Shown here one piece after another: positions 2,895-38,209 of a stretch of 64,000 bases of DNA. Source of the stretch: a virus. The DNA lies in UHGV virus genome UHGV-0149956; one strand, written 5' to 3'. Numbering within the stretch: the first letter of the stretch is position 1; every line of letters starts with the position of its first letter. Both the position numbers and the translations under genes were made by a program. The notes under the pieces were generated by a model. That model saw nothing but the letters and a program-made list of their open reading frames with translations, made no database searches and was not told the DNA's origin.

Positions 2895-3355
2895 GCCCTT
2901 ACGATGTAATTAAATGCAATATTACGGGGGCGGGTTTCAGATGCTGTACGAACTGAGCGAGAGGCGTCGAATGTCCAGTTATAAGAGCCATAACCCTCAA
3001 TAATTTCCGTTTCCTTTAGGCCTGTAGATAATACTTGACCATGTTGACTAAATGGCCCTGAACTAAGTACATCTCTAAAAAGCTGAGTACGCCCGAAAGA
3101 ACCAACAATATTCTGAATTGCATCATTCTGTGCAGATAATAAATTACGGCCAGAGTCAATCCCCCGCCCGTCATCCCAGCCGCGAATAAATTCGCCCCGT
3201 AGATCCGGCAATTTATTAGTAGGGTAAACCTTTGCCAGATTTGGGTACTTTTCAGAAGAAAATGCTGCACCATTGCATTTCAGCCACCCCGTTGGCGGTG
3301 TGGCTGAGGGCCATGGAACAGGTACACCAACGGGCAGTGCCGAGCCTTCCCCCAA
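2888..3355 (-). CDS. Tail-fibre C-terminal cassette 1
   Basis: Same conserved blocks, distinct variable core; lies 10 nt after the stop of the main fibre gene. Confidence 0.6.
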   Translation of the reverse strand: MGEGSALPVGVPVPWPSATPPTGWLKCNGAAFSSEKYPNLAKVYPTNKLPDLRGEFIRGWDDGRGIDSGRNLLSAQNDAIQNIVGSFGRTQLFRDVLSSGPFSQHGQVLSTGLKETEIIEGYGSYNWTFDASRSVRTASETRPRNIAFNYIVRAA

Positions 3356-3372: not shown

Positions 3373-5390
3373 GCCCTTACGATGTAATTAAATGCAACGT
3401 TGCGAGGGCGAGTTTCTGTACCTACATTTCCACTAATTTCACCATAACGTTTAACACTACGAGAGCTAATAGCTCGTAGTGAGGAAGGCACCTTATGACC
3501 GGGTTCGTCCGTTTTAACTATTCCCCCGTCACCGTATGTAGCTAGTATTCCTGGATTTACGCCTTCCCGTGCACTTCCTGCGGCGAGTCCGTCCCCTGTC
3601 CATAATTCCATATAGTGTGCATGGTCCAAAATTGTGTGTGGCTGCCAATTAAGCAAAGCGCGGCCAGCATCCACCCCGCGCCCATCATCCCAGCCACGGA
3701 TAAATTCACCGCGTAAATCAGGTAATTTTAACGTTGGGTAAACCTTTGCCAGATTTGGGTACTTTTCAGAAGAAAATGCTGCACCATTGCATTTCAGCCA
3801 CCCCGTTGGCGGTGTGGCTGAGGGCCATGGAATAGGTACACCAACGGGCAGCGCCGAGCCTTCCCCTAAACCAAGGTAATCAAGAACGCTCTGAATACTG
3901 GTCTTACCAAGAATGGCGCGTCCAACACTTGTCAATGCAGTTAACGCGGCACGATCAACACCTGTGAAATAAGGGAGTTTATCTGCTGCTGTAGCTAGTG
4001 CCGCTAGAGCAGTGAGCGTAGCGTCTGCCGCTTGCTTTCCATTAGCCAAATCATATGCAGCCTTGACAGCTTTCGGTGTGGCGGCCAGCACTTCAGACGT
4101 GCTGTTAGTGGCACTACTGAGCTGAGTGATGCCTTTCGCTGTCAATGAAGCTGTTGGCACACCAGTGATCTGATTCCAGGGATGTGTATGACTGGATGGT
4201 GCCTTTCCGGCTGCTAGATCGTATGCAGCTTTAACCGCTTTTGGAGTTGCAGCTAATGTTTCAGAAGTGCTGTTGGTGTCGCTACTGAGCTGAACTATCC
4301 CTTTTTGTGTCGTGGTTGCATCCTGGGCTGTATACTTCCCGTTAGCCAAATCATATGCAGCCTTGACAGCTTTCGGTGTGGCGGCCAGCACTTCGGACGT
4401 ACTGTTAGTGGCACTACTGAGCTGAGTGATGCCTTTCGCTGTCAATGAAGCTGTTGGCACACCAGTGATCTGATTCCAGGGATGTGTATGACTGGATGGT
4501 GCCTTTCCGGCTGCTAGATCGTATGCAGCTTTAACCGCTTTTGGAGTTGCAGCTAATGTTTCAGAAGTGCTGTTGGTGTCGCTACTGAGCTGAACTATCC
4601 CTTTTTGTGTCGTGGTTGCATCCTGGGCTGTATACTTCCCGTTAGCCAAATCATATGCAGCCTTGACAGCTTTCGGTGTGGCGGCCAGCACTTCGGACGT
4701 ACTGTTAGTGGCACTACTGAGCTGAACTAATCCCTTTTGCGTTGTGCTTGCATCCTGCGCCGTATATTTGCTTTTCGCCAGATCGTAGGCTTTTTTAACT
4801 GCCAGCGAACTCGCAGCAACATCACTTCTGGTACTGGTTACAGAGTCTGAAATATCAATGCCGATCGTGCGGTTGATACGCTCGGATGTATCAATCATCT
4901 CTTGAGTAATGGTAGATACGCCAGCAGGGATATTCACCGTACAAACCAGCAGTTCCCCATCACCTAACTGATATGAATCGGTATAGGTTCTGGCAACAAA
5001 TTCAGCTGCATGAATATGTGACGCGGTATTCACCTGATAGGTATCTTCTCCAAGAAGGTATCTTCCCTTCAGCACAATTGCATATTTCTTGCCTGCGTTA
5101 AGTGCAAGAGAGATATCCTTACGATGCTGAATAGTTACCTGGTAGAATTCACCAATATCCACTGACGCCGCGCCAGCGGTTTTATCTCCATCCACTGAGG
5201 TGATTAACAGGTTCATTCCACCGCCAGGCTTAGGCAAGAAACCAGCATAAAATCCCGGGTCAACAATTCCCCTGAATTTTCGGTTTAGAGCGGCTGACAG
5301 ATATGGTTCGTGGTATTGCACATCAGCCACCAGAGCCAACGACTCGGGTGATGGGTAAGTAACCGATGTAACAACTGTAACGTCATTCAT
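3366..5390 (-). CDS. S: Tail fibre protein (S-like) with ~30-aa repeats and expressed C-terminal tip
   Basis: ATG at 5390 with AAGGA 5-8 nt upstream; internal repeats TAQDA-TTQKG-VQLSS-TNSTSE-LAATPKAVKAAYDLA; C-terminal 150 aa homologous to the downstream cassettes. Confidence 0.8.
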   Translation of the reverse strand: MNDVTVVTSVTYPSPESLALVADVQYHEPYLSAALNRKFRGIVDPGFYAGFLPKPGGGMNLLITSVDGDKTAGAASVDIGEFYQVTIQHRKDISLALNAGKKYAIVLKGRYLLGEDTYQVNTASHIHAAEFVARTYTDSYQLGDGELLVCTVNIPAGVSTITQEMIDTSERINRTIGIDISDSVTSTRSDVAASSLAVKKAYDLAKSKYTAQDASTTQKGLVQLSSATNSTSEVLAATPKAVKAAYDLANGKYTAQDATTTQKGIVQLSSDTNSTSETLAATPKAVKAAYDLAAGKAPSSHTHPWNQITGVPTASLTAKGITQLSSATNSTSEVLAATPKAVKAAYDLANGKYTAQDATTTQKGIVQLSSDTNSTSETLAATPKAVKAAYDLAAGKAPSSHTHPWNQITGVPTASLTAKGITQLSSATNSTSEVLAATPKAVKAAYDLANGKQAADATLTALAALATAADKLPYFTGVDRAALTALTSVGRAILGKTSIQSVLDYLGLGEGSALPVGVPIPWPSATPPTGWLKCNGAAFSSEKYPNLAKVYPTLKLPDLRGEFIRGWDDGRGVDAGRALLNWQPHTILDHAHYMELWTGDGLAAGSAREGVNPGILATYGDGGIVKTDEPGHKVPSSLRAISSRSVKRYGEISGNVGTETRPRNVAFNYIVRAA
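3861..3886 (-). other. Crossover-like site 0 (Din/invertase-family-like 26-mer) at constant/variable junction of S
   Basis: TTCCCCTAAACC-AA-GGTAATCAAGAA; resembles hix/gix/cix sites as recalled (12-bp half sites flanking a 2-bp AA core). Confidence 0.55.
4021..4725. repeat. Near-perfect 300-bp tandem repeat (2.3 copies) inside the fibre gene
   Basis: Sequence lines starting at 4321 and 4621 are identical, and lines 4141/4441, 4201/4501, 4261/4561 are identical; period exactly 300 bp. Confidence 0.9.
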
Positions 5391-6754: not shown

Positions 6755-8184
6755 TCCTCCTCATACGAAATATTAAAGGTGGAGTTTTCTGTATCCAGAT
6801 AAACGAAATCGTAAAAGCCGTTGGACTCATTCCACTCGACAAATTCCAGATAAAAGTCGCGGAAATAACCCAGCGTTTCGATAAATGCCCAAACGTCTTT
6901 TTTCTTGATTAGGATGTACTTGCCGACACGGTTCGGATCAAAGAAAGTTGAGTCACGCCCAAATTTTGTTTCCAGTGCCGACTTCAGCTCATCAGTCACG
7001 TTCTCAATGGTCAGGCTTGCCGATATCCGCCCAGTGATGGTGATCTTAAAGGGTAGTTTTCTGACCTCTTTATACGAGAATTTCTTGTTCAACTCATTCG
7101 GCACCTTCTTAAAGGCGGCCAGGATCATTTCTTCAAGCTCTGACTGGCTTTTGTTTGGATGCCATCCTGAAATAAATATCTTATTGATATTCCGAACATT
7201 ATAAGCACCATCTAATTTCTCTTGCTGGCCTTCGCCCCATGCCTTTACCCAGGACAGTCCCGGGATGTTACGCACCAGAAAATACGTATAGTCCCCGCCC
7301 CATACGACCTGATCATCATAGGCAAGGTAATATTGTGCACGGTTACGTGTGATCTCCGTTGTTTCAGCATCGGTACCTGCGGTTATAGGTGTCGTTGTCT
7401 TAACTGAAATCAAATTAGCTAAATTAGCCGCAGAATCAACAGGAGTCAGGTTTTGGCCAGCAACCAGGGTTATATCGCCGTTGGTGCACCATACCTTAAG
7501 CGTAATTGTCGAGCCTTCTGGCGGTATTTGCCCAATTAGCCCATCGCCGAATCGGACACCCAACTGTTCGGATGGTTTATAAAACTCAACGTAGACCTGG
7601 CTTTTACTACCAGCTAACCGGAACATTGTGCTGGAAGACCACTGCGTGGTCTTACCATCGGTCGTCACGAATACTTCCAGCTTATAGCAGACAGCAGTGA
7701 GAGCCTTTGATAACACGACTTCCAGAAATTCTTTGGCAGCCGTAACGGTATATGTCACCTCCTGGATTTCCAACTGTGCCACTTCTACCGTACCGGTGCC
7801 GTCAACCAACCTGCATACATCCATAGTCATGTAAGGGTACTGGTCGTCAGATATTAAAGGCATGTTTTTGGGAATTACCGCTGGGGCATCTTCACTTGTG
7901 GCGGTGATCTCAATCATCCCCGATGACGGTGTTGGCTTGGTACCAACGTAACTATTCGTTTCTGCCGCTGCCAGGATAGAGGAACGCCGCGTCGCGGTCG
8001 ATATAAAGCCTTCAGCCAGCGCCGCATCGGCATACTGAAAGCACCTGTAGACAATCTGGGTAATAAACAATGTCAGCATCGAGACAAATTGAGAGCCGAC
8101 AAACTTCGACCAGAATGAATCTTTCTCGACAAGCTCTTCAAACTCTGCACGAATACTGTCTTTAGTCGGTGTTGTTTTACTCAT
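6751..8184 (-). CDS. Virion structural protein, probable baseplate wedge
   Basis: 477-aa ORF translationally coupled on both sides. Confidence 0.4.
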   Translation of the reverse strand: MSKTTPTKDSIRAEFEELVEKDSFWSKFVGSQFVSMLTLFITQIVYRCFQYADAALAEGFISTATRRSSILAAAETNSYVGTKPTPSSGMIEITATSEDAPAVIPKNMPLISDDQYPYMTMDVCRLVDGTGTVEVAQLEIQEVTYTVTAAKEFLEVVLSKALTAVCYKLEVFVTTDGKTTQWSSSTMFRLAGSKSQVYVEFYKPSEQLGVRFGDGLIGQIPPEGSTITLKVWCTNGDITLVAGQNLTPVDSAANLANLISVKTTTPITAGTDAETTEITRNRAQYYLAYDDQVVWGGDYTYFLVRNIPGLSWVKAWGEGQQEKLDGAYNVRNINKIFISGWHPNKSQSELEEMILAAFKKVPNELNKKFSYKEVRKLPFKITITGRISASLTIENVTDELKSALETKFGRDSTFFDPNRVGKYILIKKKDVWAFIETLGYFRDFYLEFVEWNESNGFYDFVYLDTENSTFNISYEEE

Positions 8185-8540: not shown

Positions 8541-11500
8541 TCAACTCTCGCGTAGTCATTCATCAACGGATCATCAATTGACAGTGGTACCGTGCGCATA
8601 ACGCCCGGCTGAGGCGTGCTGACCTTTACGACAGTTCCCTGGCCTTTCGCCGAGTCTTTGGTGTGCTCTTCAATCCTGGCAAGCAATGAGGTCATCTGCG
8701 CAAACAGCCGCTTCGTTTCACCATCAAGTGAAACGGTATTATCAGCCAACTGCATTGTCGGCTTGGCACCGGAACCGCCAAGGTCACTAATAACCTGCCC
8801 GTCTATCTGCATACGACCGGTTGGTTGCTGCAAATCGTTGGCGGCAGTCGTCACCTGGGACGTGGAGGCTGGTTCAGGCGCATTATTTTTCCGCATCCCC
8901 GGCGAGTTGCGGAGTTTATCGAATAGTCCATCAATCCCCATTTGTGCGCCGAGATGGTCAAAGTAACTTGAGTTGTTGGCCACCGGACGCGCCTCTTCAA
9001 CTGGCATCGGAGTATCAACATACACATTGCCAGCTGCTGTTGCGGTCCCCTTCTCTCGTGCACGTTCTTCTAGCGTTCCCTGAACGACTTCCCGACGCAT
9101 CCCCCGGCCATTCATGAATTTGTTGACCAGATCGTTAACGCCAACAGCATTGCCGATTTTGTCGACCAGACCGCCTTTCTCAAACGGGCTATCACCAGGG
9201 GTAAACGCCAGGCCAGTATACTGATCGATAACAGCGTTATCAGGCAGTGGTCCCCTCACTCCATATTGCGCCCCACCCTGTGCTCCTGCTCCAGGTGTAT
9301 AGATTTCACCACCTAAATAGCGAGCACGATGAGTATTGACCTTGATCGCGTACTCACGGTTTTCTTTCGATAAGTCACCGGTGCCTTTTTTCCACTTATT
9401 AATAGTGCCAAACCCAGCATTATATGCAGTGATGGCCTCGTTTAAGTCTCCATTGGCTTGCTTAAGATACTTGCTCATGAGAAGAGCCGCAGCTTCTGCC
9501 GATTTCACAGGATCAAACGATTCACCTTCAGCTAAGCCAGTCTCTTCACGAGCAATCCCCGTGAACTGAAACATCCCCAGAGCACCGGTTTGGGATTTTG
9601 CATACGGATTACCACCAGATTCAGTTGCAGCAATCGCGTAAAGAGTGCCTTCTGGAAGACCGTATTTATTCTCTAGTTCGGCAAAATACGGAGCCAACTT
9701 ATCGAGATTTGCCTTACCTTCAGCGCCAAGACTTCCGACTTTTACATCTAAGTTGCCATTGTTGTAAGTATCCGCAGCTTTCTGAATGTCATTCCTGGTG
9801 CCAGTGGTATTAAGCGACGATGATGACGAGCTATTTTGACCAATAGCTTTATCAATTTTCTGCAACGCGCTATTGCCCGTTTCTACGGCATTTGCATTGA
9901 TAATCTGATTGGCAGTTTGTTTAACTGTTTTATTGCTATCTTTCGCTGTGTCCAGTGCCGCATTTATCACGCGGGTAGCAATATTACTCTGTTTGGCATC
10001 GGATTCAGTTTTAGAATCAGACGTCTCCTGGTGGCTATTAACCGGAGCTTTTAACTCCGGAGTGATTTCTTTCGCATTAGCCTCGCCGATCGGATTGGGT
10101 ATTTTTGATACAATCATTGCCGCAGGGGTATTTTTAACGGCATCAACCGCTGCATCTAATGCTTTACCAGGTAAATTTTTAACCCCATCCCAAATATTAC
10201 CAGCCGCCTCTTTAATGTGTTTCCCTGGGTTCTTAATGAAATCAATTGCACTATCAATTGCATCACTGAAAACCTGTTTCAGGTTATCAACAGTAAAGAA
10301 GTCTTTGATGGCATCCAGCTTTTCAAGCAGCTTATTAGATGTATCGCTAAACCATGCTGAAACAGCATCACCAATCTTTGCTGTGTAATCTTCGAACTTG
10401 GTAGAAATGGTGTCGCCAAGGTTAGAAATATATGTTTCTAAGTTGGTAATCCCACTATCAATGGCCTGGGCAATACTTTCCGTCGAAAATGATTGCAACA
10501 TATTGCCGATATCCTCAAATCCAAGTGATTTGAGAACCTCACCAATGGCGCTGCTAATACCAGATACCAGTCCCCCCATATCAAGAACATTGGCTAACGT
10601 ATAAGCGGCTTTTTGCTGGAATGATGGCTCTTGTCCTGATTTAAGCCCAAACGCTCGACGTTGCGCTTCTGTATCATTCCAACCGGTTACCGCATCATAA
10701 ATACCTCCAGCCACTGTGCCGACTAAGGGAATTGCGCGTAACGCCCCTTTACCAACTGCCTTTAATCCAAATTTACCTGCTGCCCGGGCAGCCAAATCTC
10801 CACCTTCATGGGCGATAGTCTTCTTGCCACCACCGCGTAGCATTCCTACAAGTTTCTTTGCCCCCAGAGCGCCAAAAGCGAGTGCTCCAGCTTTTTTCAG
10901 CATGCCACGCCCCATTAACAACGACGCGACGCCACCGGCCCCCTTCCCTAACAGGCTAAATAGTTTGGACAGCAAGCCGCCCTTCTTTTTCCCGGTGTTT
11001 TTGGCTATCTGATCAAGGGCGCTGAGAATCTTGTCATTGCCCTCTTTAATTTCGCTGGTCTGCTCCTGAAGTTCCTGAACCGTCCGTTTTTGGGTGTTAA
11101 CCTGAACGACATCGGCACTATTTTGCGATTTACGCCTAAAAAAACCTTTTCTACGGCTGTTATCGTCATTGCCACGAATCACATCGGCAATAGACTTTCT
11201 GGCGCCATTAAGCGATCCACCAACTTCTTTTGATATCCCGCCAAGCTCCTTCCCTGCTGCCCACAATGGACCAGCAACGGCATAACCTAACGCATCGACG
11301 GCACGAGTCTCTGAAGGGTTACCTATGCCTTCAGCTACTTTTGACAGTTTTTTTAATAAACCTGATTCAGCATTTAGACGCTCATCATCCTCTTTGCGCC
11401 TGGCCTTTTCAGCACGTTCAGCACGGGCATCTTCCGCTGCGGCCTTACTCCCTGACTTTCCAATAAAACGACCACGCGCATCGCGTTGGTTTTGGCTTTT

Positions 11501-15435: not shown

Positions 15436-15452
15436 AATGCTCTAATAAATTT
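15436..15452 (+). promoter_or_regulatory. C1-repressor-type operator 17-mer
   Basis: AATGCTCTAATAAATTT versus recalled P1 consensus ATTGCTCTAATAAATTT. Confidence 0.65.
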
Positions 15453-15559
15453 GTATTTTTAAGTCGCGAATGCTATCTTTTCGCATCATATTGACCTTTT
15501 AATCGTTCAGGCTTATAGTTCCGCCGTCGTAGCAAATTCTGCGACCGGGTTTAGCAGCC

Positions 15560-15650
15560 TGAATGTTAGTGCGGACAACCGCAGATATCCGATATTGCGG
15601 TATTTTTGTGTCCGTAAAACCGCGTTACGCCCAAATTATGGTGGGGCGTG
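15560..15650 (+). ncRNA. Candidate c4-like antisense regulatory RNA region
   Basis: Structured segment (inverted repeats CGGACAA...TTGTGTCCG and CCGCAGATAT...ATATTGCGG) between the operator and icd, the expected place for c4 in an immI region; boundaries approximate. Confidence 0.3.
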
Positions 15651-15766
15651 ATGGGGAGGCTTCGGCCTGCTGGTTTCACTAACGCCAGTCTGCTAACCCC
15701 GTCACGTCCTGCCACCTGTTTAGCAGCGGGTAGCAGGTTGTTAAACCTGTTAGTGAGGCCGTAACT

Positions 15767-17097: not shown

Positions 17098-17114
17098 TTT
17101 GCTCTAATAAATTT
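17098..17114 (+). promoter_or_regulatory. C1-repressor-type operator 17-mer upstream of kilA-repL
   Basis: TTTGCTCTAATAAATTT. Confidence 0.6.
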
Positions 17115-19155: not shown

Positions 19156-19259
19156 TACAATCGTTGCGGGTGCTTGAGGCTATCTGCTTCAGGCATTACC
19201 CGAAAAGCAGATAGAAGAAAGCCCCAGATAACATTACGCGTCCTGCAAGACGCTTAACA

Positions 19260-19335
19260 TTAATCTGAGGCCATATCTATGCTTAGCATACGTAGATTAG
19301 CCTCTTACCGACCAAAAGGTCAAGGAGAAGCAGGC
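19260..19335 (-). ncRNA. Expected sok-like antisense RNA of the hok locus (position inferred)
   Basis: Hok/Sok architecture places the antisense RNA opposite the mok leader; no promoter verified. Confidence 0.3.
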
Positions 19336-19485
19336 TATGAAGCAGCAAAAAGCGATGTTAATCGCTCTGATCGTCATCTGTTTAACCGTCATTGTGACGG
19401 CACTGGTAACGAGGAAAGACCTCTGCGAGGTACGAATCCGAACCGGCCAGACGGAGGTCACTGTCTTCACAGCCTACGAATCTGA
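19279..19485 (+). CDS. mok: Mok-like overlapping reading frame
   Basis: 68-aa ORF beginning upstream of and overlapping hok in another frame. Confidence 0.5.
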   Translation: MLSIRRLASYRPKGQGEAGYEAAKSDVNRSDRHLFNRHCDGTGNEERPLRGTNPNRPDGGHCLHSLRI

Positions 19486-32052: not shown

Positions 32053-32069
32053 ATTGCTCTAATAAATAT
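32053..32069 (+). promoter_or_regulatory. C1-repressor-type operator 17-mer upstream of uhr-hrdC-dmt
   Basis: ATTGCTCTAATAAATAT. Confidence 0.65.
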
Positions 32070-32425: not shown

Positions 32426-33323
32426 GCACTGGAAAAACATTACTATTTATAAACTTTCTCGTGAGGCGGATCTGACCGACTTAGAAGATAAAAAGAAAAT
32501 GATCCTTTTCACGCCATGCGGTAGTCAGGATATGGCCAAGTTCGGTTTTGTATCTCCATTTGGTGATAATTCCGAAGTTATCGCTATGCATGGAAATGGT
32601 TTTATCCTTGTTGAAGCAAAGCGCGAAACAAAAATTCTTCCCCCGCCGGTTATCCAGCGAGCTATTCAAGAAAAAATTGAAAAACTTGAGCAAGAACAAG
32701 CGCGTAAACTGAAGAAAACAGAGAAGGACTCCCTGAAAGACGAAGTTCTGCATTCTCTTCTGCCACGGGCTTTTTCAAAGTTTTCTGTTATCCAGGCGAT
32801 CTACGACGGTTCAACTAAACGTATCTATATCAATGCCAGCGCGCGGCAGGCAGAGGATATGCTCGCGCTTATGCGTAAGTCTCTGGGTTCTCTTCCTGTT
32901 GTTCCCCTGAGTGTTGAAAATCCCATTGAATTAACGCTGACCGACTGGGTACGTGATGGTAGTGCTCCACAGGGATTTCAAATGGGGGATGCGGCAGAAC
33001 TTAAGGCAGTGCTTGAGGATGGCGGTATTGCCCGGGTGAAAAAGCAGGATTTGGGAAGCGATGAAATTTCCACACACCTGGAAGCTGGCAAGCTCGTCAC
33101 TAAGTTGGCACTCGACTGGCAGAACCGCATTAAATTTACACTGGACCATAACTTCAGCCTTACCAGCGTCAAATTTGCGGATGAATTGCTTGAGCAGAAC
33201 TCTGATATTGATAGTGAAGATGTTGCGCAGCGACTGGACGCAGATTTCTTCCTGTTGACCAGTGAAATTTCGTGCCTGGTTGATGCTCTGGTAAATGCCC
33301 TTGGTGGAGAGGCTAAGCAGTGA
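32418..33323 (+). CDS. hrdC: Recombination-associated protein RdgC homolog
   Basis: [52 protein letters not shown] closely follow E. coli RdgC as recalled; SD AAGGG. Confidence 0.85.
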
Positions 33324-35584
33324 AAGAGCTGTGCTATGGATCTGTTTGCAGTGGAATTGAAGCCGCGAGTATTGCCTGGGAACCGTTGGGTATGCGTCCG
33401 GTGTGGTTTGCTGAAATCGAGTCTTTTCCATCTGCCGTTCTTGCGCACCGCTGGCCCCATGTCGCCAACCTTGGCGACATGACAAAACTTGCCAAAAAAG
33501 TCCTGGCTGGGGAAATCGAATCCCCTGATGTGCTCGTCGGGGGAACACCTTGTCAGGCATTCAGTATCGCGGGATTACGTGGTGGGCTTGATGATGAGCG
33601 TGGCGCGCTAACTTTAAAGTATGTGGAGCTTGCAAATGCAATTGACGACAAACGGGCTGAGTCATTTCTCAAACCAGCCGTTATCGTCTGGGAAAATGTC
33701 CCAGGAGTCTTGTCTTCGGCAGATAACGCCTTCGGATGTTTCCTTGCCGGATTGGCTGGAGAAGATGTGCCATTTGAACCAGGTGATCGACCTGAATCAG
33801 GAAAAAGCAACGCGTTCTGGCGGTGGGATGGCAAAACCGGTTGCCATGTTCCAAAGTGGCCGCAGTGTGGTTGTATTTATGGACCGCAGCGAAAGGTGGC
33901 CTGGAGAATCCTTGATGCCCAATACTTCGGAGTGGCACAACGACGCCGACGCGTGTTTGTTGTCGCAAGTGCTCGAACAGACCTCGATCCCGCAACGGTA
34001 CTTTTTGAGTTCGAAGGCGTGCGCCGGAATATTGCGCCGAGCCGAAAAAAGAAGGAAATCGCTTCCGCCATTACTGCAAATGGCGCTGCAATCAGTGGCG
34101 AAAGCCTAAATCCATGCCTACACGCTGGCATGTCCCCCGGTATGAAATCGACGAAAGCCGTAAACGGTTTCAGGATGGCGGCATTTGGGGAATATATTGA
34201 CGATGAAACCGCATCGACAGTAAAGGCAAGAGACTTTAAAGATGCCACTGACCTTGCCGTTTTTAGCAGCACTGGAGCAGGTTTTTGGTCAGAAGGGCAT
34301 GGTACATTGCGGGCGCGTGAGCAAGAAAGCCATGAGCATCTTGTTACATTGGCTTTTCCTGAGCGTATGAGTGGTACACAACATGCAGCAACTAAGAATA
34401 CTTCACCATCTCTAATGGCTCAAAATCCAACTGCTGTTTGCTATGAAGTAAGAAACGAAGAAGTAGCTGTCCGCCGTCTTACCCCTGTCGAATGTGAGAG
34501 ACTTCAAGGTTTTCCTGATGGGCATACGTTGATCCCTACGGAAAAGCGTAAAAAAGTTAATTCAGATGAACTGGCATATCTGCACAATCACTATCCAGAT
34601 TTAAGCGAAGAAGAGGCCGCGATGCTTGCAGCTGACGGACCGCGTTACAAAGCGATCGGCAATAGTATGGCAATACCAGTAATGCGCTGGATTGGCGATC
34701 GGATTACTAAGGCCGTATGTCGGCAGAAAGAAGGAAGTGAAACAAAAGAGCGAAAAGTTAAACCAGCGGCAGAATTCGAACGGTCCATATTCAAATGGGC
34801 TGGTGGAAAATTTGGTGTTCTGGAACAAATCTTTCGCTATTTGCCAGAAGGGAAGCGCCTGATCGAACCTTTTGTCGGTGGCGGAGCTGTCTTCACGAAT
34901 GCCGGATACCAGGAAAATCTGCTAAATGATGTGAATGCTGACCTGATTAACTTTTACAAGACTCTGCAACGCGAGGCGCATTCACTTATCACACTGGCGC
35001 ATCGGTTTTTCCAGGACTACAACACACAGGAAGGATACCTGGCAGTACGGAATGCGTTTAACAAACAAGTCTATGATGATTTACATCGCGCAGCGGCGTT
35101 TTTGTTCCTGAACCGACATTGTTTTAACGGATTGACGCGTTACAACCAGGCCGGTGAGTTCAATGTCGGTTATGGGAAGTATAAAACTCCGTATTTCCCA
35201 TTACAGGAGATGGAAGCCTTCCTCGGTGCGGAAGGGCGTTCTGAGTTTGTATGTGGTGATTTTGCTGCGGTAATTGAAGCTGCCGGAGAAGGAGATGTCA
35301 TTTTTTGCGATCCGCCATATGAACCGCTTCCAAATACAGAGGGATTCACGAACTATTCCGGTCATGACTTTAAGTTTGAAGAGCAAAAACGCCTGGTGTC
35401 TCTGTTGACGGATGCTCATCGTCGAGGTGCAAAGGTTCTCATTACTAACAGTGGCGCGCCAAACATCAGAGAGCTTTATCATGACAGTGGCTTCAGAGTG
35501 GAACCTCTTTTTGCCAGACGTTCTGTGTCTTGTAAGGGGGACACTCGAGGTGTAGCTCATGACGTTTTGGGTATATTGCTCTAA
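33320..35584 (+). CDS. dmt: Fused DNA methyltransferase: N-terminal C5-cytosine MTase plus C-terminal Dam-like N6-adenine MTase
   Basis: 754 aa; C5 motifs [11 protein letters not shown] and VWENVPG; Dam motifs FKWAGGK and CDPPYEP. Confidence 0.85.
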
Positions 35585-35591
35585 TAAATTT
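35575..35591 (+). promoter_or_regulatory. C1-repressor-type operator 17-mer
   Basis: ATTGCTCTAATAAATTT, perfect match to recalled consensus; overlaps dmt stop. Confidence 0.7.
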
Positions 35592-35765
35592 ATTAGTGTA
35601 ATATCGCCTCAATGAATCGTGATTTATAGAGCGATTTAGCTGTTAGCCGCGACAGGCGCGGCGGTAAGCATGGCTGGGCCTAGTCCTCCCAGACAAACCA
35701 CCGAGTTGCCAGGTTGACCATGCGCCTAAGTGGCAACGCCGAAGTGCGTTACGAGCTTCCAGTTT

Positions 35766-35790
35766 GCCCATCTTCGGGTGGGCTTTTTTA
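35766..35790 (+). terminator. Rho-independent terminator
   Basis: GCCCATCTTCGGGTGGGC hairpin followed by TTTTTTA. Confidence 0.6.
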
Positions 35791-36253
35791 GGGTTTTCGT
35801 CATGGTTAGCGACTTTGCGGCGGTTTAGAACCCGACCATTAAAGTAAATGCAAACGATGATCTGATGATGGTAGCGGCCTAAGAAGCCAGACGCCACGGG
35901 GTATGAGTCGTCCCCCGTCAAAAAATCGACCGCAGAGTGTCCCCGTCTGTGTATTAGGGAACGGGGAGGCACAACAGGTAAGGGCGCTGGTGTGATTAAC
36001 CAGATGAACGAGAAGGGGCCATCTGTTGGTCAGCGTCCTTTCCTGTTGCGTCTTCTTTTCAGCGTAACAGCGGTGCTTAACAGCACTTTGGGTACAGTTC
36101 CACGAATTTACGGGTATATCCCGTCATGCTGAAGGCGCTAATCACGCTGGAAGCCAGGGTTGTGCATCCCCTGTTACCGAATTGCAGCCAGGGCGCGGTG
36201 CGCCGAAAAGCATACGGAGGTGGAAGCCCTCGCCGGAGACGTACCCGGCAAGT

Positions 36254-36329
36254 GATGGTGTAGCTCAGCGGTTAGAGCGGTTGACTGTTAATCAACGGGT
36301 CGATGGTTCAAATCCATCCACCATCGCCA
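36254..36329 (+). tRNA. tRNA-Asn (anticodon GTT)
   Basis: Cloverleaf built by hand: acceptor GATGGTG/CACCATC, D-stem GCTC/GAGC, anticodon loop CTGTTAA, T-arm GATGG-TTCAAAT-CCATC, 3' GCCA. Confidence 0.85.
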
Positions 36330-36331
36330 AT

Positions 36332-36407
36332 GCCGGTTTAGCTCAGTTGGTAGAGCGCCTGCCTTGTAAGCAGGATGTCAGCGGTTCGAGTCCGTTAATC
36401 GGCACCA
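36332..36407 (+). tRNA. tRNA-Thr (anticodon TGT)
   Basis: Acceptor GCCGGTT/AATCGGC, anticodon stem CCTGC/GCAGG with loop CTTGTAA, T-loop TTCGAGT, 3' ACCA. Confidence 0.85.
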
Positions 36408-36420
36408 GCACAACAGGTAA

Positions 36421-36484
36421 GGGTATTTTGCGACGTCGGAGATCGCCGAGCTTGGCAGAGGGTTCGAATCCCTACGAAGTACCC
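36421..36484 (+). ncRNA. Truncated tRNA-like element (acceptor, D-like and T arms, no anticodon arm) within an extended helix
   Basis: GGGTATT...AGTACCC acceptor pairing, GCGA/TCGC stem, canonical T-loop TTCGAAT; flanking CAACAGGTAAGGG / CCCTTACCGTTG extend the helix. Confidence 0.3.
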
Positions 36485-37097
36485 TTACCGTTGTGATGAA
36501 GTGCAGCTCTTTGAAGCAACCAGAAGATAAGCATCTGGCTTCACAACATAAACCGCAGGAACGACCAATAAACGGTAGTCCGTATGGAGAACACCCCGTT
36601 GAGGAAGAGGCCTGGCCGGAACCGTAACCGGCACTACAACGTTGAGAACACTGGCGTAACGGGGTCATATCCCAATCTACGAATAAATGTTGCGTTGCAG
36701 CGTGACAACCAGTGTTCTCAACATTGTGGTGAATGCACAGGCTGATGTGCCGCAACTACAGTAGTGCGCGCTTTGCGGGGCTTGCTACAACCCTGTGTCG
36801 GAGTTCAGCACCGACCATCACAGTTCGATTCTCTGGCATGAGCATAACGCTGAAATAAGTCCAGTCTGGTGCGGCCCGATCACCCGCCGTTAGCTCCACG
36901 AAACGGAGCACGTAACAGGTAAGAGCATTCTCCTGTAACGGGTTCATATCCCAATCTACAGGTCCACCAGGAATGCTCTTTCCGTTGCGGTGAATGCGGC
37001 TAAGCGCACGCGGAACAGTTAAAACAATCCTCCTTAATGGTTAAACATTCCGGCGTTAATTGTTAACTGGTTAACGTCACCGGGAGGCACTCGGCAC

Positions 37098-37114
37098 CGC
37101 AATCTAATAAATAT
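37098..37114 (+). promoter_or_regulatory. Degenerate C1-operator-like site upstream of the TerB-ban operon
   Basis: CGCAATCTAATAAATAT, 11/17 to recalled consensus with conserved CTAATAAAT core. Confidence 0.3.
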
Positions 37115-37138
37115 GTCACTTTTATTGAGGGATAACCA

Positions 37139-37573
37139 ATGTTCGGTAAATTGTTCGGCAAGAAAGTCGCTTCTGCAAAAGTAGAGCTGAAAAAAGTTGA
37201 GAATCGCGATCTGATGGAGGCCATCATCGGTGGCTGTTTGTTGGTGTCTGCCGCTGATGGTGAAATCGAAAAAGAAGAAACAGCGAAACTTGATCAGCTT
37301 GTCCGCTCTAATCCGCGTCTTAGTCATTTTGGTAACGAAATTACTGCAACAATTACCCGCTTTACCGAGCAACTGGAAGCTGGCTTCCGTGTTGGTCGCA
37401 TGAATATCCTTCGCGAAATTGAAGATATCAAAAACGATCCAAAAGAAGCGGAAGAAGTATTCGTTAACATGCTGACAATTGCAGAAGCGGACGGTGAAAT
37501 CGAGCCAGCAGAACACAAAGTACTGGAAGAAGTAGGCCGTCGTTTGGGTCTTCGTGTGGAAGATTATCTGTAA
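37139..37573 (+). CDS. TerB-like (tellurite-resistance family) protein
   Basis: 144 aa with duplicated ADGEIE-x-EE motif characteristic of TerB. Confidence 0.6.
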   Translation: MFGKLFGKKVASAKVELKKVENRDLMEAIIGGCLLVSAADGEIEKEETAKLDQLVRSNPRLSHFGNEITATITRFTEQLEAGFRVGRMNILREIEDIKNDPKEAEEVFVNMLTIAEADGEIEPAEHKVLEEVGRRLGLRVEDYL

Positions 37574-37737
37574 TGGCAAGCAAGGCACGTATCGCAATCG
37601 CCATTGGTTTTCTCTTGCTGTCCGTGCTGGTGGATTTCACCAGCACAATCCTGTCAGTTTTATCGGACGGGGCGTTGGTGGCAGTAGCTGTAACATTGGT
37701 ATGGCCGATATTAAAAACAGCTTCTAAGGATCAGTGA
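37573..37737 (+). CDS. Small hydrophobic membrane peptide (54 aa)
   Basis: MASKARIAIAIGFLLLSVLVDF...; start overlaps TerB stop (TAATG); not in ORF track because shorter than 60 aa. Confidence 0.45.
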   Translation: MASKARIAIAIGFLLLSVLVDFTSTILSVLSDGALVAVAVTLVWPILKTASKDQ

Positions 37738-37844
37738 TGGGCTTCTGGGATTTTGCTGACAAGCATCCAATTGTTCTCGTTGTCATTGCTGGCATAGTTG
37801 TAGGCGGTATTGCTGGCGTCATAGAAGCACTCAGGAAACAGTAA
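37737..37844 (+). CDS. Small hydrophobic membrane peptide (35 aa)
   Basis: MGFWDFADKHPIVLVVIAGIVVGGIAGVIEALRKQ; TGATG overlap with preceding ORF. Confidence 0.4.
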   Translation: MGFWDFADKHPIVLVVIAGIVVGGIAGVIEALRKQ

Positions 37845-37847
37845 TCC

Positions 37848-37923
37848 GGCCCTTTAGCTCAGTGGTTAGAGCTGGCGACTCATAATCGCACGGTCACCGG
37901 TTCAAGTCCGGTAGGGGCCACCA
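37848..37923 (+). tRNA. tRNA-Ile2-like (anticodon CAT; could be read as Met)
   Basis: Close to E. coli ileX as recalled: GGCCCTT acceptor, anticodon loop CTCATAA, T-arm ACCGG-TTCAAGT-CCGGT, 3' ACCA. Confidence 0.8.
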
Positions 37924-38209
37924 TATTTGGTTGTAACACGGCGTCTGGCACATGCGTCGTTAGCGGTCTGGTGACGTTAAAAGGGGGGAACCTTGCCCCT
38001 AGCTCAGGCAACGAACCAGGTAGCCGGAATGTGCAAGCCACCGTTTGTTGTTTCTCGGGTAAAGGGATTCACCATCCTGGCGATTCGGTGTGACAGCCGG
38101 GAAGAGTCCGGCGCATTAATCCTGATTTTCTGGTGATGACTCATATCGTTAGGAGTGATTTGAGTATGCCGATTATATCTGACATTCAGCACGCCTGGGT
38201 GGAGTGCTA

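Follow-up and report, generated by a model that had tools for sequence, protein, structure and literature searches.

A conserved pseudoknotted RNA domain between the C1 operator and the terminator in the ban operon leader of P1-type phage-plasmids

We analysed the operator-to-terminator unit (35575-35790) of the virus genome UHGV-0149956, within a stretch of 64,000 nucleotides (nt) that we call the window and whose positions are used throughout. Our main finding is a conserved RNA domain of about 100 nt, containing a covarying pseudoknot, between the operator of the C1 repressor and the intrinsic terminator. The first-pass annotation, made from the sequence alone, had passed over these 175 nt as a gap free of open reading frames (ORFs); they actually carry a conserved structured RNA. 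The unit is the known leader of the C1-repressed ban operon of phage P1, and its operator, promoter and terminator are already annotated. The operator, the promoter and the ban operon are thus textbook P1 and nothing new, and the novelty is the RNA between operator and terminator, which seems to have gone unrecognised so far.

Results

A conserved RNA domain in the ban leader

Five helices were proposed from a MAFFT alignment of 37 distinct sequences. The domain, its helices and the elements that follow it are:

35642-35741, plus strand: conserved pseudoknotted RNA domain, ~100 nt, identified by covariation and by homology to the segment upstream of DicF
35647-51 with 35657-61, plus strand: helix P0, a hairpin
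35662-65 (CGGU) with 35700-03 (ACCG), plus strand: helix P1
35674-78 with 35688-92, plus strand: helix P2, a variable hairpin
35705-11 with 35731-37, plus strand: helix P3, a hairpin
35668-73 (GCAUGG) with 35718-23 (CCAUGC), plus strand: pseudoknot, its 3' strand inside the P3 loop
35742-35765, plus strand: variable single-stranded spacer, the gap between domain and terminator, at the position of the DicF seed region
35766-35789, plus strand: intrinsic terminator, a 7-bp stem GCCCATC/GGTGGGC with a TTCG (UUCG) loop (35766-35783) followed by T6 (35784-35789); dG -11.3 kcal/mol

In the MAFFT alignment, 96.9% of the cells were paired and seven pairs changed on both sides, a result that none of 500 shuffles reached, while slid controls gave at most one such pair. 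Realignment to a covariance model (R1; 100 instances, 61 distinct) gave 96.3% paired over 28 pairs, with 11 of the 28 changing on both sides (0 of 500 shuffles, slid controls at most 4); this second alignment, being fitted to the model, leans towards it. Most of the covariation is found in P2 and P3, and the P1 helix and the pseudoknot have one covarying pair each (U-A to C-G, with U-G intermediates). Indels in P2 are not multiples of three and occur alongside compensatory changes. Loops and joining regions show almost no sequence variation (GGCGGUAAG, CAGGUUGACCAU and CGC.U.AG). The copy in the window scored 90.6 bits with R1. Versions from lambdoid phages have an extra closing helix, GUUGUGG/CYRCAAC (2986-2992 / 3101-3107 in the Qin sequence L003, whose domain copy is at 2996-3097, and equivalents), which P1-type copies lack; its 3' strand varies (CUGCAAC, CCACAAC, CUACAAC) and is pairable in every case.

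The minimum-free-energy fold of the whole leader was not significant (z = -1.5) and missed the pseudoknot. No family of Rfam 15 matched 35642-35741, and over the Qin prophage copies of the domain nothing was matched except DicF. Other Rfam families gave only noise over the leader (nuoG, and a RyhB match limited to the terminator). Our literature searches by keyword and by sequence string did not find the domain, although an earlier description is possible, as papers on the "dicF-like region" are outside the searchable literature. Elsewhere in the window, R1 gave weak matches (12-21 bits) at 1811-1914, 2283-2386, 3200-3303 and 3714-3817 (minus strand), in repeat units of the tail-fibre gene S; these are probably spurious, since the sequence is coding and the P1 helix is broken.

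The terminator begins 175 nt past the end of the operator and 180 nt past dmt. The first-pass annotation had described a strong terminator about 175 nt past the operator with no ORF between the two, and this was borne out: we found no credible ORF there. The only one on the plus strand is a 32-amino acid (aa) ORF with a GTG start (35730-35828), which overlaps the terminator, and the minus strand has an unannotated ORF of 109 aa (35643-35972). A loose terminator scan of the region was not above chance (3 found, 2.9 expected). The terminator hairpin is kept in P1, P7, D6 and p98192, with substitutions that preserve pairing. In the window T6 comes directly after the stem, whereas reference P1 has G+T6. 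The spacer is entirely different among the P1-type, p98192-type and DicF-type variants, and its best duplexes inside the window (-29 to -31 kcal/mol) were not above the background of shuffled seeds (-28 to -33).

The domain lies upstream of DicF in E. coli

DicF is a well-studied regulator of cell division and virulence. Using 35588-35800 as query in a sensitive BLAST search, we found that 4262 of 5426 complete E. coli genomes have a chromosomal segment with 76-79% identity to 35647-35741. K-12 has it in the Qin prophage, between ydfC and dicB, with 24 nt separating its end from DicF downstream; the domain is 77-79% identical to these ~100 nt of Qin. When the Qin copy was used as query, the segment was found at 9463 places in 4418 of the 5426 genomes (81%), with up to 8 copies each; canonical DicF was found at 7242 places in 4011 E. 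coli genomes. The P1 record AF234172 annotates a "dicF-like region" that corresponds to 35699-35800 of the window. The leader could not be assigned to DicF, as the family model (RF00039) gave no match at E<=1 over 35000-38500 nor at E<=10 over 35560-35830, in comparison to 76.7-77 bits for the Qin copies. Since the DicF model fails while the homology ends 24 nt before DicF, the "dicF-like" similarity is to the segment upstream of it. Judged by these alignments, what P1 and Qin have in common is this upstream segment, not DicF itself.

The DicF locus of Qin nevertheless resembles the window in organization. Both are repressor-controlled early operons with the order domain, short spacer and terminator hairpin, followed by a segment similar to the Rfam family STnc100 and the ribosome-binding site of the first gene (in P1, past a 1.2-kb insert). 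In sequence they differ: neither the P1 spacer nor the P1 hairpin is related to DicF. In Qin the equivalent hairpin is the DicF terminator, and the 53-nt form of DicF arises by termination there, its 5' end being cut by RNase E 24 nt past the domain (PMC5069750). By analogy with this homologous locus, a small repressor-controlled RNA from the P1 leader is plausible, as the first-pass annotation had proposed.

Outside chromosomes, the domain occurs in 504 plasmid records, mostly P1-like phage-plasmids of ~95 kb from Escherichia, Salmonella, Klebsiella and Shigella, as P1-type and P7-type alleles, and both allelic forms keep the fold. We also found it in the lambdoid phages mEp460 and cdtI, in Stx2c phages and in Salmonella F1055, as well as in genomes of Citrobacter, Trabulsiella, Serratia symbiotica, Erwinia tracheiphila and Izhakiella. 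The hosts of lambdoid phages with the domain belong to at least seven enterobacterial genera.

Coupling of the domain to terminators

In 135 of 137 instances (86 of the 88 distinct downstream sequences), the domain is succeeded, at a distance of 37-129 nt, by a stable hairpin with a tract of at least five T, the two exceptions being one T4 and one decayed Shigella copy. These hairpins are of several unrelated sequence types, including DicF, the P1 type (GCCCAUC-UUCG-GGUGGGC), a Salmonella type, and at least five DicF-like GGCGG...CCGCC variants with differing loops and spacers. In the versions from Erwinia, Serratia, Izhakiella, Trabulsiella and Salmonella, the hairpin loop has AGGAG (Shine-Dalgarno) and a start codon, AUG or GUG. 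The frames that begin there have 36-43 codons (MFYR/MFCR...) and run through the 3' arm and the U tract (4660-4830 in L162, 2620-2760 in L007, and also L145, L160 and L164). With the start codon in the hairpin loop and the frame crossing the U tract, expression there needs read-through; termination at the hairpin of these five genera may be sensitive to translation.

In lambdoid phages, the domain is located in the early leftward operon, downstream of a cI-like or dicA repressor gene and of a strong pL-like promoter, and genes are present beyond the terminator that follows it. In phage cdtI, the domain comes 290 nt after a near-consensus pL-like promoter (TTGACA-16-CATAAT); beyond it lie the hairpin, a long inverted repeat and, after these, the first gene. 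Immediately before the domain, neither Qin nor cdtI showed a promoter. We also found no second, putR-like copy in cdtI (the domain is single-copy per genome), and no N-like protein among the genes neighbouring the domain in the lambdoid phages sampled. On inspection for antiterminator pairing, GUGGG of p98192 could pair with CCCAC, with no equivalent in the P1 or DicF types.

The C1 operator, the promoters and the ban operon

Over 35400-36500, the window shares 99.4% identity with phage P1 (AF234172/NC_005856) and ~96% with P7. Around the unit, window position x corresponds to P1 coordinate x + 33092. At this site AF234172 annotates a divalent C1 operator, Obanab (former Op72ab), which "controls expression of ban", and at Obanab also the sigma-70 promoter P1ban and the predicted promoter P2ban. 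The corresponding features of the window are:

35575-35591, plus strand: C1 operator Oban-a (Op72a), ATTGCTCTAATAAATTT, 0 mismatches; protein_bind 68667-68683 of AF234172
35586-35602, minus strand: C1 operator Oban-b (Op72b), ATTACACTAATAAATTT, 2 mismatches; P1 68678-68694
35576-35604, plus strand: promoter P1ban, -35 TTGCTC (35576-35581), 17-nt spacer, -10 TAATAT (35599-35604), sequence mapped onto the P1 record
35559-35564 (-35) and 35585-35590 (-10), plus strand: predicted P2ban, from the regulatory features of the P1 record
33320-35584, plus strand: dmt (DNA methyltransferase), from the ORF list and the P1 record; stop codon TAA (35582-35584) inside the operator
35790-36253, plus strand: untranslated leader running to the tRNA genes, conserved in P1, P7, D6 and p98192
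36254-36329, plus strand: tRNA-Asn (ARAGORN, Rfam tRNA), first gene past the terminator
36332-36407, plus strand: tRNA-Thr (ARAGORN, Rfam tRNA)
38204-39574, plus strand: ban (DnaB-type helicase; ORF, P1 record), distal gene dependent on the operator and promoter according to the annotation

The perfect operator 17-mer that the first-pass annotation saw overlapping the dmt stop codon is indeed present (35575-35591), and is the sole perfect one among nine operator-like 17-mers with up to 3 mismatches in the window, where 0.32 are expected by chance. Since a second, inverted operator overlaps it at 35586-35602, the site is bivalent. The P1ban hexamers (TTGCTC-17-TAATAT) fall within the overlapping operator pair, as in the P1 annotation. 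Past the terminator the gene order is tRNA-Asn, tRNA-Thr, tciA/B/C, a tRNA with a CAT anticodon (which the P1 record calls tRNA-Ile) and then ban, with plp and upl encoded on the opposite strand within the ban leader region. A plus-strand scan from the terminator to the tRNA genes found no other consensus promoter. A promoter reading onward into the tRNA genes, also suggested in the first-pass annotation, is the curated view in the records of P1 and P7: according to the P7 record (AF503408) the operator controls the tRNA genes and ban, and in the curated annotation of AF234172 ban is controlled from an operator 2.6 kb upstream.

Further C1 operator-like 17-mers (1-3 mismatches) were found at window positions 17098, 32053, 45719, 49343, 49392 and 51484. 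The site at 32053-32069 is upstream of hrdC-dmt, and therefore the hrdC-dmt operon may also be controlled by C1.

Mosaic structure of the ban leader

The leader of tciA contains a second structured segment:

36983-37130, plus strand: STnc100-like structured segment (Rfam STnc100, 43 bits with gathering threshold 47, E 3e-7), ending at the Shine-Dalgarno sequence of tciA (37139)

Aligned with Qin and P7, this segment proves to be a homologue of the Qin region between DicF and dicB, with a nearly identical core and the same ribosome-binding site end. From these alignments, the ban leader of P1 resembles one of Qin type into which ~1.2 kb has been inserted: a 460-nt untranslated stretch and two tRNAs, with plp/upl on the opposite strand. 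In plasmid p98192, upstream flanks like those of D6 are combined with the domain and a different short spacer (L165 2990-3140), and D6 has neither domain nor spacer; the domain and spacer therefore behave as one insertion/deletion cassette ahead of the terminator.

Downstream of the tRNA genes, the plus strand has a tRNA-like remnant that is not called by ARAGORN (36416-36489). It combines a 10-bp acceptor-like stem (GGTAAGGGTA/TACCCTTACC) with a perfect T-arm (AGGG-TTCGAAT-CCCT), and D6 and p98192 carry a tRNA-Ser at this position. Its word cacaacaggtaaggg recurs at 35971.

Comparison with put and other leader RNAs

The put RNAs of phages such as HK022 promote terminator read-through in cis, in dependence on the beta' zinc-binding domain of RNA polymerase. 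The put sites and the domain are alike in several respects: they are structured RNAs, 70-130 nt long, that lie ahead of terminators in the leaders of repressor-controlled early operons (HK022, HK639), and they occur in phages in which N was not found (those sampled) or that do not use N (HK022, PMC9378689); HK639 likewise has a single copy. They differ in fold: put has two stems, whereas the domain has three hairpins, the P1 helix and a pseudoknot. We located putL and putR of HK022 by position and by the numbering in PMC9378689, and the putL-like RNA of HK639 from the annotation of its record. R1, run with filters off on HK022 and HK639, matched no putL or putR site. The best local alignment between the domain and put was the 9-mer GCGCGGCGG, which ~6-7% of shuffles reached (139 and 115 of 2000) and which is not significant. 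Two short put-like words (GGCGCG... and ACCAUGCG) are found ~55 nt apart in the domain, in different structural roles. With R1 negative, the local alignment not significant and the folds different, membership of the domain in the put family is unsupported. A functional analogy to put, as a leader RNA ahead of terminators in the N-less phages sampled, is possible.

Our searches also showed putL-type RNAs (AACGGCGCG....TAAACCATGCGTCGG) to be widespread, in more than 120 viral contigs (L170-L289; L169 34187-34312). By eye, the lower helix of their stem II appears to covary.

The window has another leader with regulatory RNAs, that of immI:

15436-15719, plus strand: immI leader, with a C1 operator-like site at 15436-15452 (1 mismatch), c4-a1b1 at 15513-15565 and the C4 antisense RNA at 15634-15719

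The P1 immI leader (Op51, a1b1 sites, C4 antisense RNA; RF01695/RF03163) resembles the ban leader in having a C1 operator followed by regulatory RNAs embedded in the leader. The sequences are unrelated, however, and C4 is recognised by Rfam while the domain of the ban leader is not. Elsewhere, 19168-19342 (plus strand) matched the Rfam sok antitoxin RNA with 114.9 bits, which implies a toxin-antitoxin locus of the hok/sok type.

Proposed function and alternative explanations

We consider it reasonably probable that the unit is a dual-output 5' leader of the C1-repressed ban operon. In the lysogen, C1 on the bivalent operator would block P1ban and P2ban. After derepression, transcription would start near 35611, as inferred from the position of the -10 hexamer, produce the ~100-nt pseudoknotted domain and meet the terminator 24 nt later. 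With a start near 35611, the transcript ended by the terminator would be ~180 nt long, and the fraction of polymerases stopping there would yield a C1-controlled RNA of this size, which corresponds to the primary transcript of DicF in Qin-type prophages. Read-through transcripts would cross ~1.5 kb of untranslated RNA (leader, tRNA-Asn, tRNA-Thr and STnc100-like segment) before arriving at tciABC, tRNA-Ile and ban. A cis-acting role of the domain is most likely, with the nascent transcript or the polymerase as its target; it would set the balance between termination and read-through, direct the processing of the short RNA, or both. The first-pass annotation had posed as alternatives a terminator that ends the dmt operon while the operator serves a promoter reading onward, with the hairpin as an attenuator, and a small repressor-controlled RNA; each is probably true in part, and the two are not mutually exclusive. 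Several observations weigh against a dual-output leader. The P1 spacer of 24 nt would leave little seed if the RNA were processed like DicF. In phage D6 the terminator, leader and tRNAs are the same but domain and spacer are missing (L168 1480-1530), so the arrangement seen in D6 can exist without the domain. Finally, by inspection we did not see an alternative pairing of the domain or spacer with the terminator that is conserved across variants.

Two accounts of what the domain does are specific versions of the dual-output leader, and their probabilities are not to be added to that of the general reading. The domain may conceivably be part of the gene of a trans-acting small RNA (sRNA), an option that we hold tentatively: it would be a 5' scaffold for folding, protection or processing (by RNase E or RNase III) of a short base-pairing RNA formed from spacer and terminator, in the manner of DicF, or else a ~180-nt RNA would bind a host protein and the domain would be its working part. 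Read-through would then be mere leakiness. The compact layout in P1, with promoter, structured RNA and a terminator having the UUU-hairpin-U6 end typical of Hfq-type sRNAs, is consistent with this, and so are the variable spacer and terminator that always accompany the domain, the behaviour of domain and spacer as one cassette between p98192 and D6, and the ends of DicF (RNase E cleavage 24 nt past the domain, and termination; PMC5069750). On the other hand, the lambdoid phages examined have no promoter directly upstream of the domain, which in cdtI is 290 nt past the pL-like promoter; the hairpin encloses a ribosome-binding site and start codon in several genera; the P1 spacer has no target above background in the window; and a scaffold would not obviously need near-invariant loops. 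The latter, with unpaired nucleotides nearly invariant amid unrelated flanks, would fit contact with a conserved host machine, as expected if the domain were a protein-independent processive antiterminator, put-like but unrelated to put, that as nascent RNA binds the elongating polymerase and makes it resistant to the terminator and, along the long untranslated leader, to Rho. The short RNA would then be the product of the unmodified fraction only. This version, which we regard as possible but doubtful, agrees with the promoter-proximal position of the domain in P1 (~30 nt from the inferred start), with its place in lambdoid pL-type operons before the first terminator and with no N-like protein detected, with its single copy per phage, as in HK639 (where a putL-like RNA alone is annotated), and with the ~1.5 kb of untranslated RNA to be crossed before tciA and ban. 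It is weakened by the failure of R1 to match HK022 putL/putR and HK639 putL, by a similarity to put of p about 0.06 or worse and a different architecture, by the terminator without domain in D6, and by the constant, close coupling to a terminator, which a processive antiterminator does not require.

Two further explanations were weighed. That the hairpin merely ends hrdC-dmt transcripts, the domain being a functionless relic of recombination that brought lambdoid DNA into P1, is improbable in our view. The terminator is indeed 180 nt past dmt, the ban leader is a mosaic with Qin-like DNA and D6 does without the domain, but 11 of 28 pairs show structure-preserving double changes, with strongly conserved loops, across P1-type, P7-type and lambdoid copies; the 504 phage-plasmid records include two allelic forms that both keep the fold; and the operator and promoter sit between dmt and the hairpin. 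A coding function, of the 109-aa minus-strand ORF or of a leader peptide from the conserved AUG at 35670, is very improbable indeed. The ORF exists, some phage records have a "hypothetical protein" at the equivalent position, and the conserved GGCGGUAAGYAUGG resembles a Shine-Dalgarno sequence with its AUG. However, neither the 32-aa nor the 109-aa ORF matched a PHROG family, the P2 indels are not multiples of three and come with compensatory changes, and the AUG is inside the covarying pseudoknot; in the aligned sequences, its frame ends after ~3 to 22 codons with no conserved peptide. We thus rejected the coding potential of the leader.

Implications

If the domain controls termination or the biogenesis of an sRNA, this would explain how a small RNA and downstream genes are expressed from the same operons, and would provide a second, independent example of RNA-only control of elongation. 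In the sources found, there was no explanation for transcription of the dicB operon past the DicF terminator. We would go further only speculatively, and with considerable doubt: the domain could represent a new class of cis-acting RNA, unrelated to put, that makes E. coli RNA polymerase ignore the following terminator, and Rho on long untranslated leaders, with no phage protein. If this were true, P1-type phage-plasmids and lambdoid prophages without N would switch one repressor-controlled promoter between a short RNA and the early operon. Since the domain lies upstream of DicF in ~80% of E. coli genomes, it would then also supply the dicBF operon with its missing control element.

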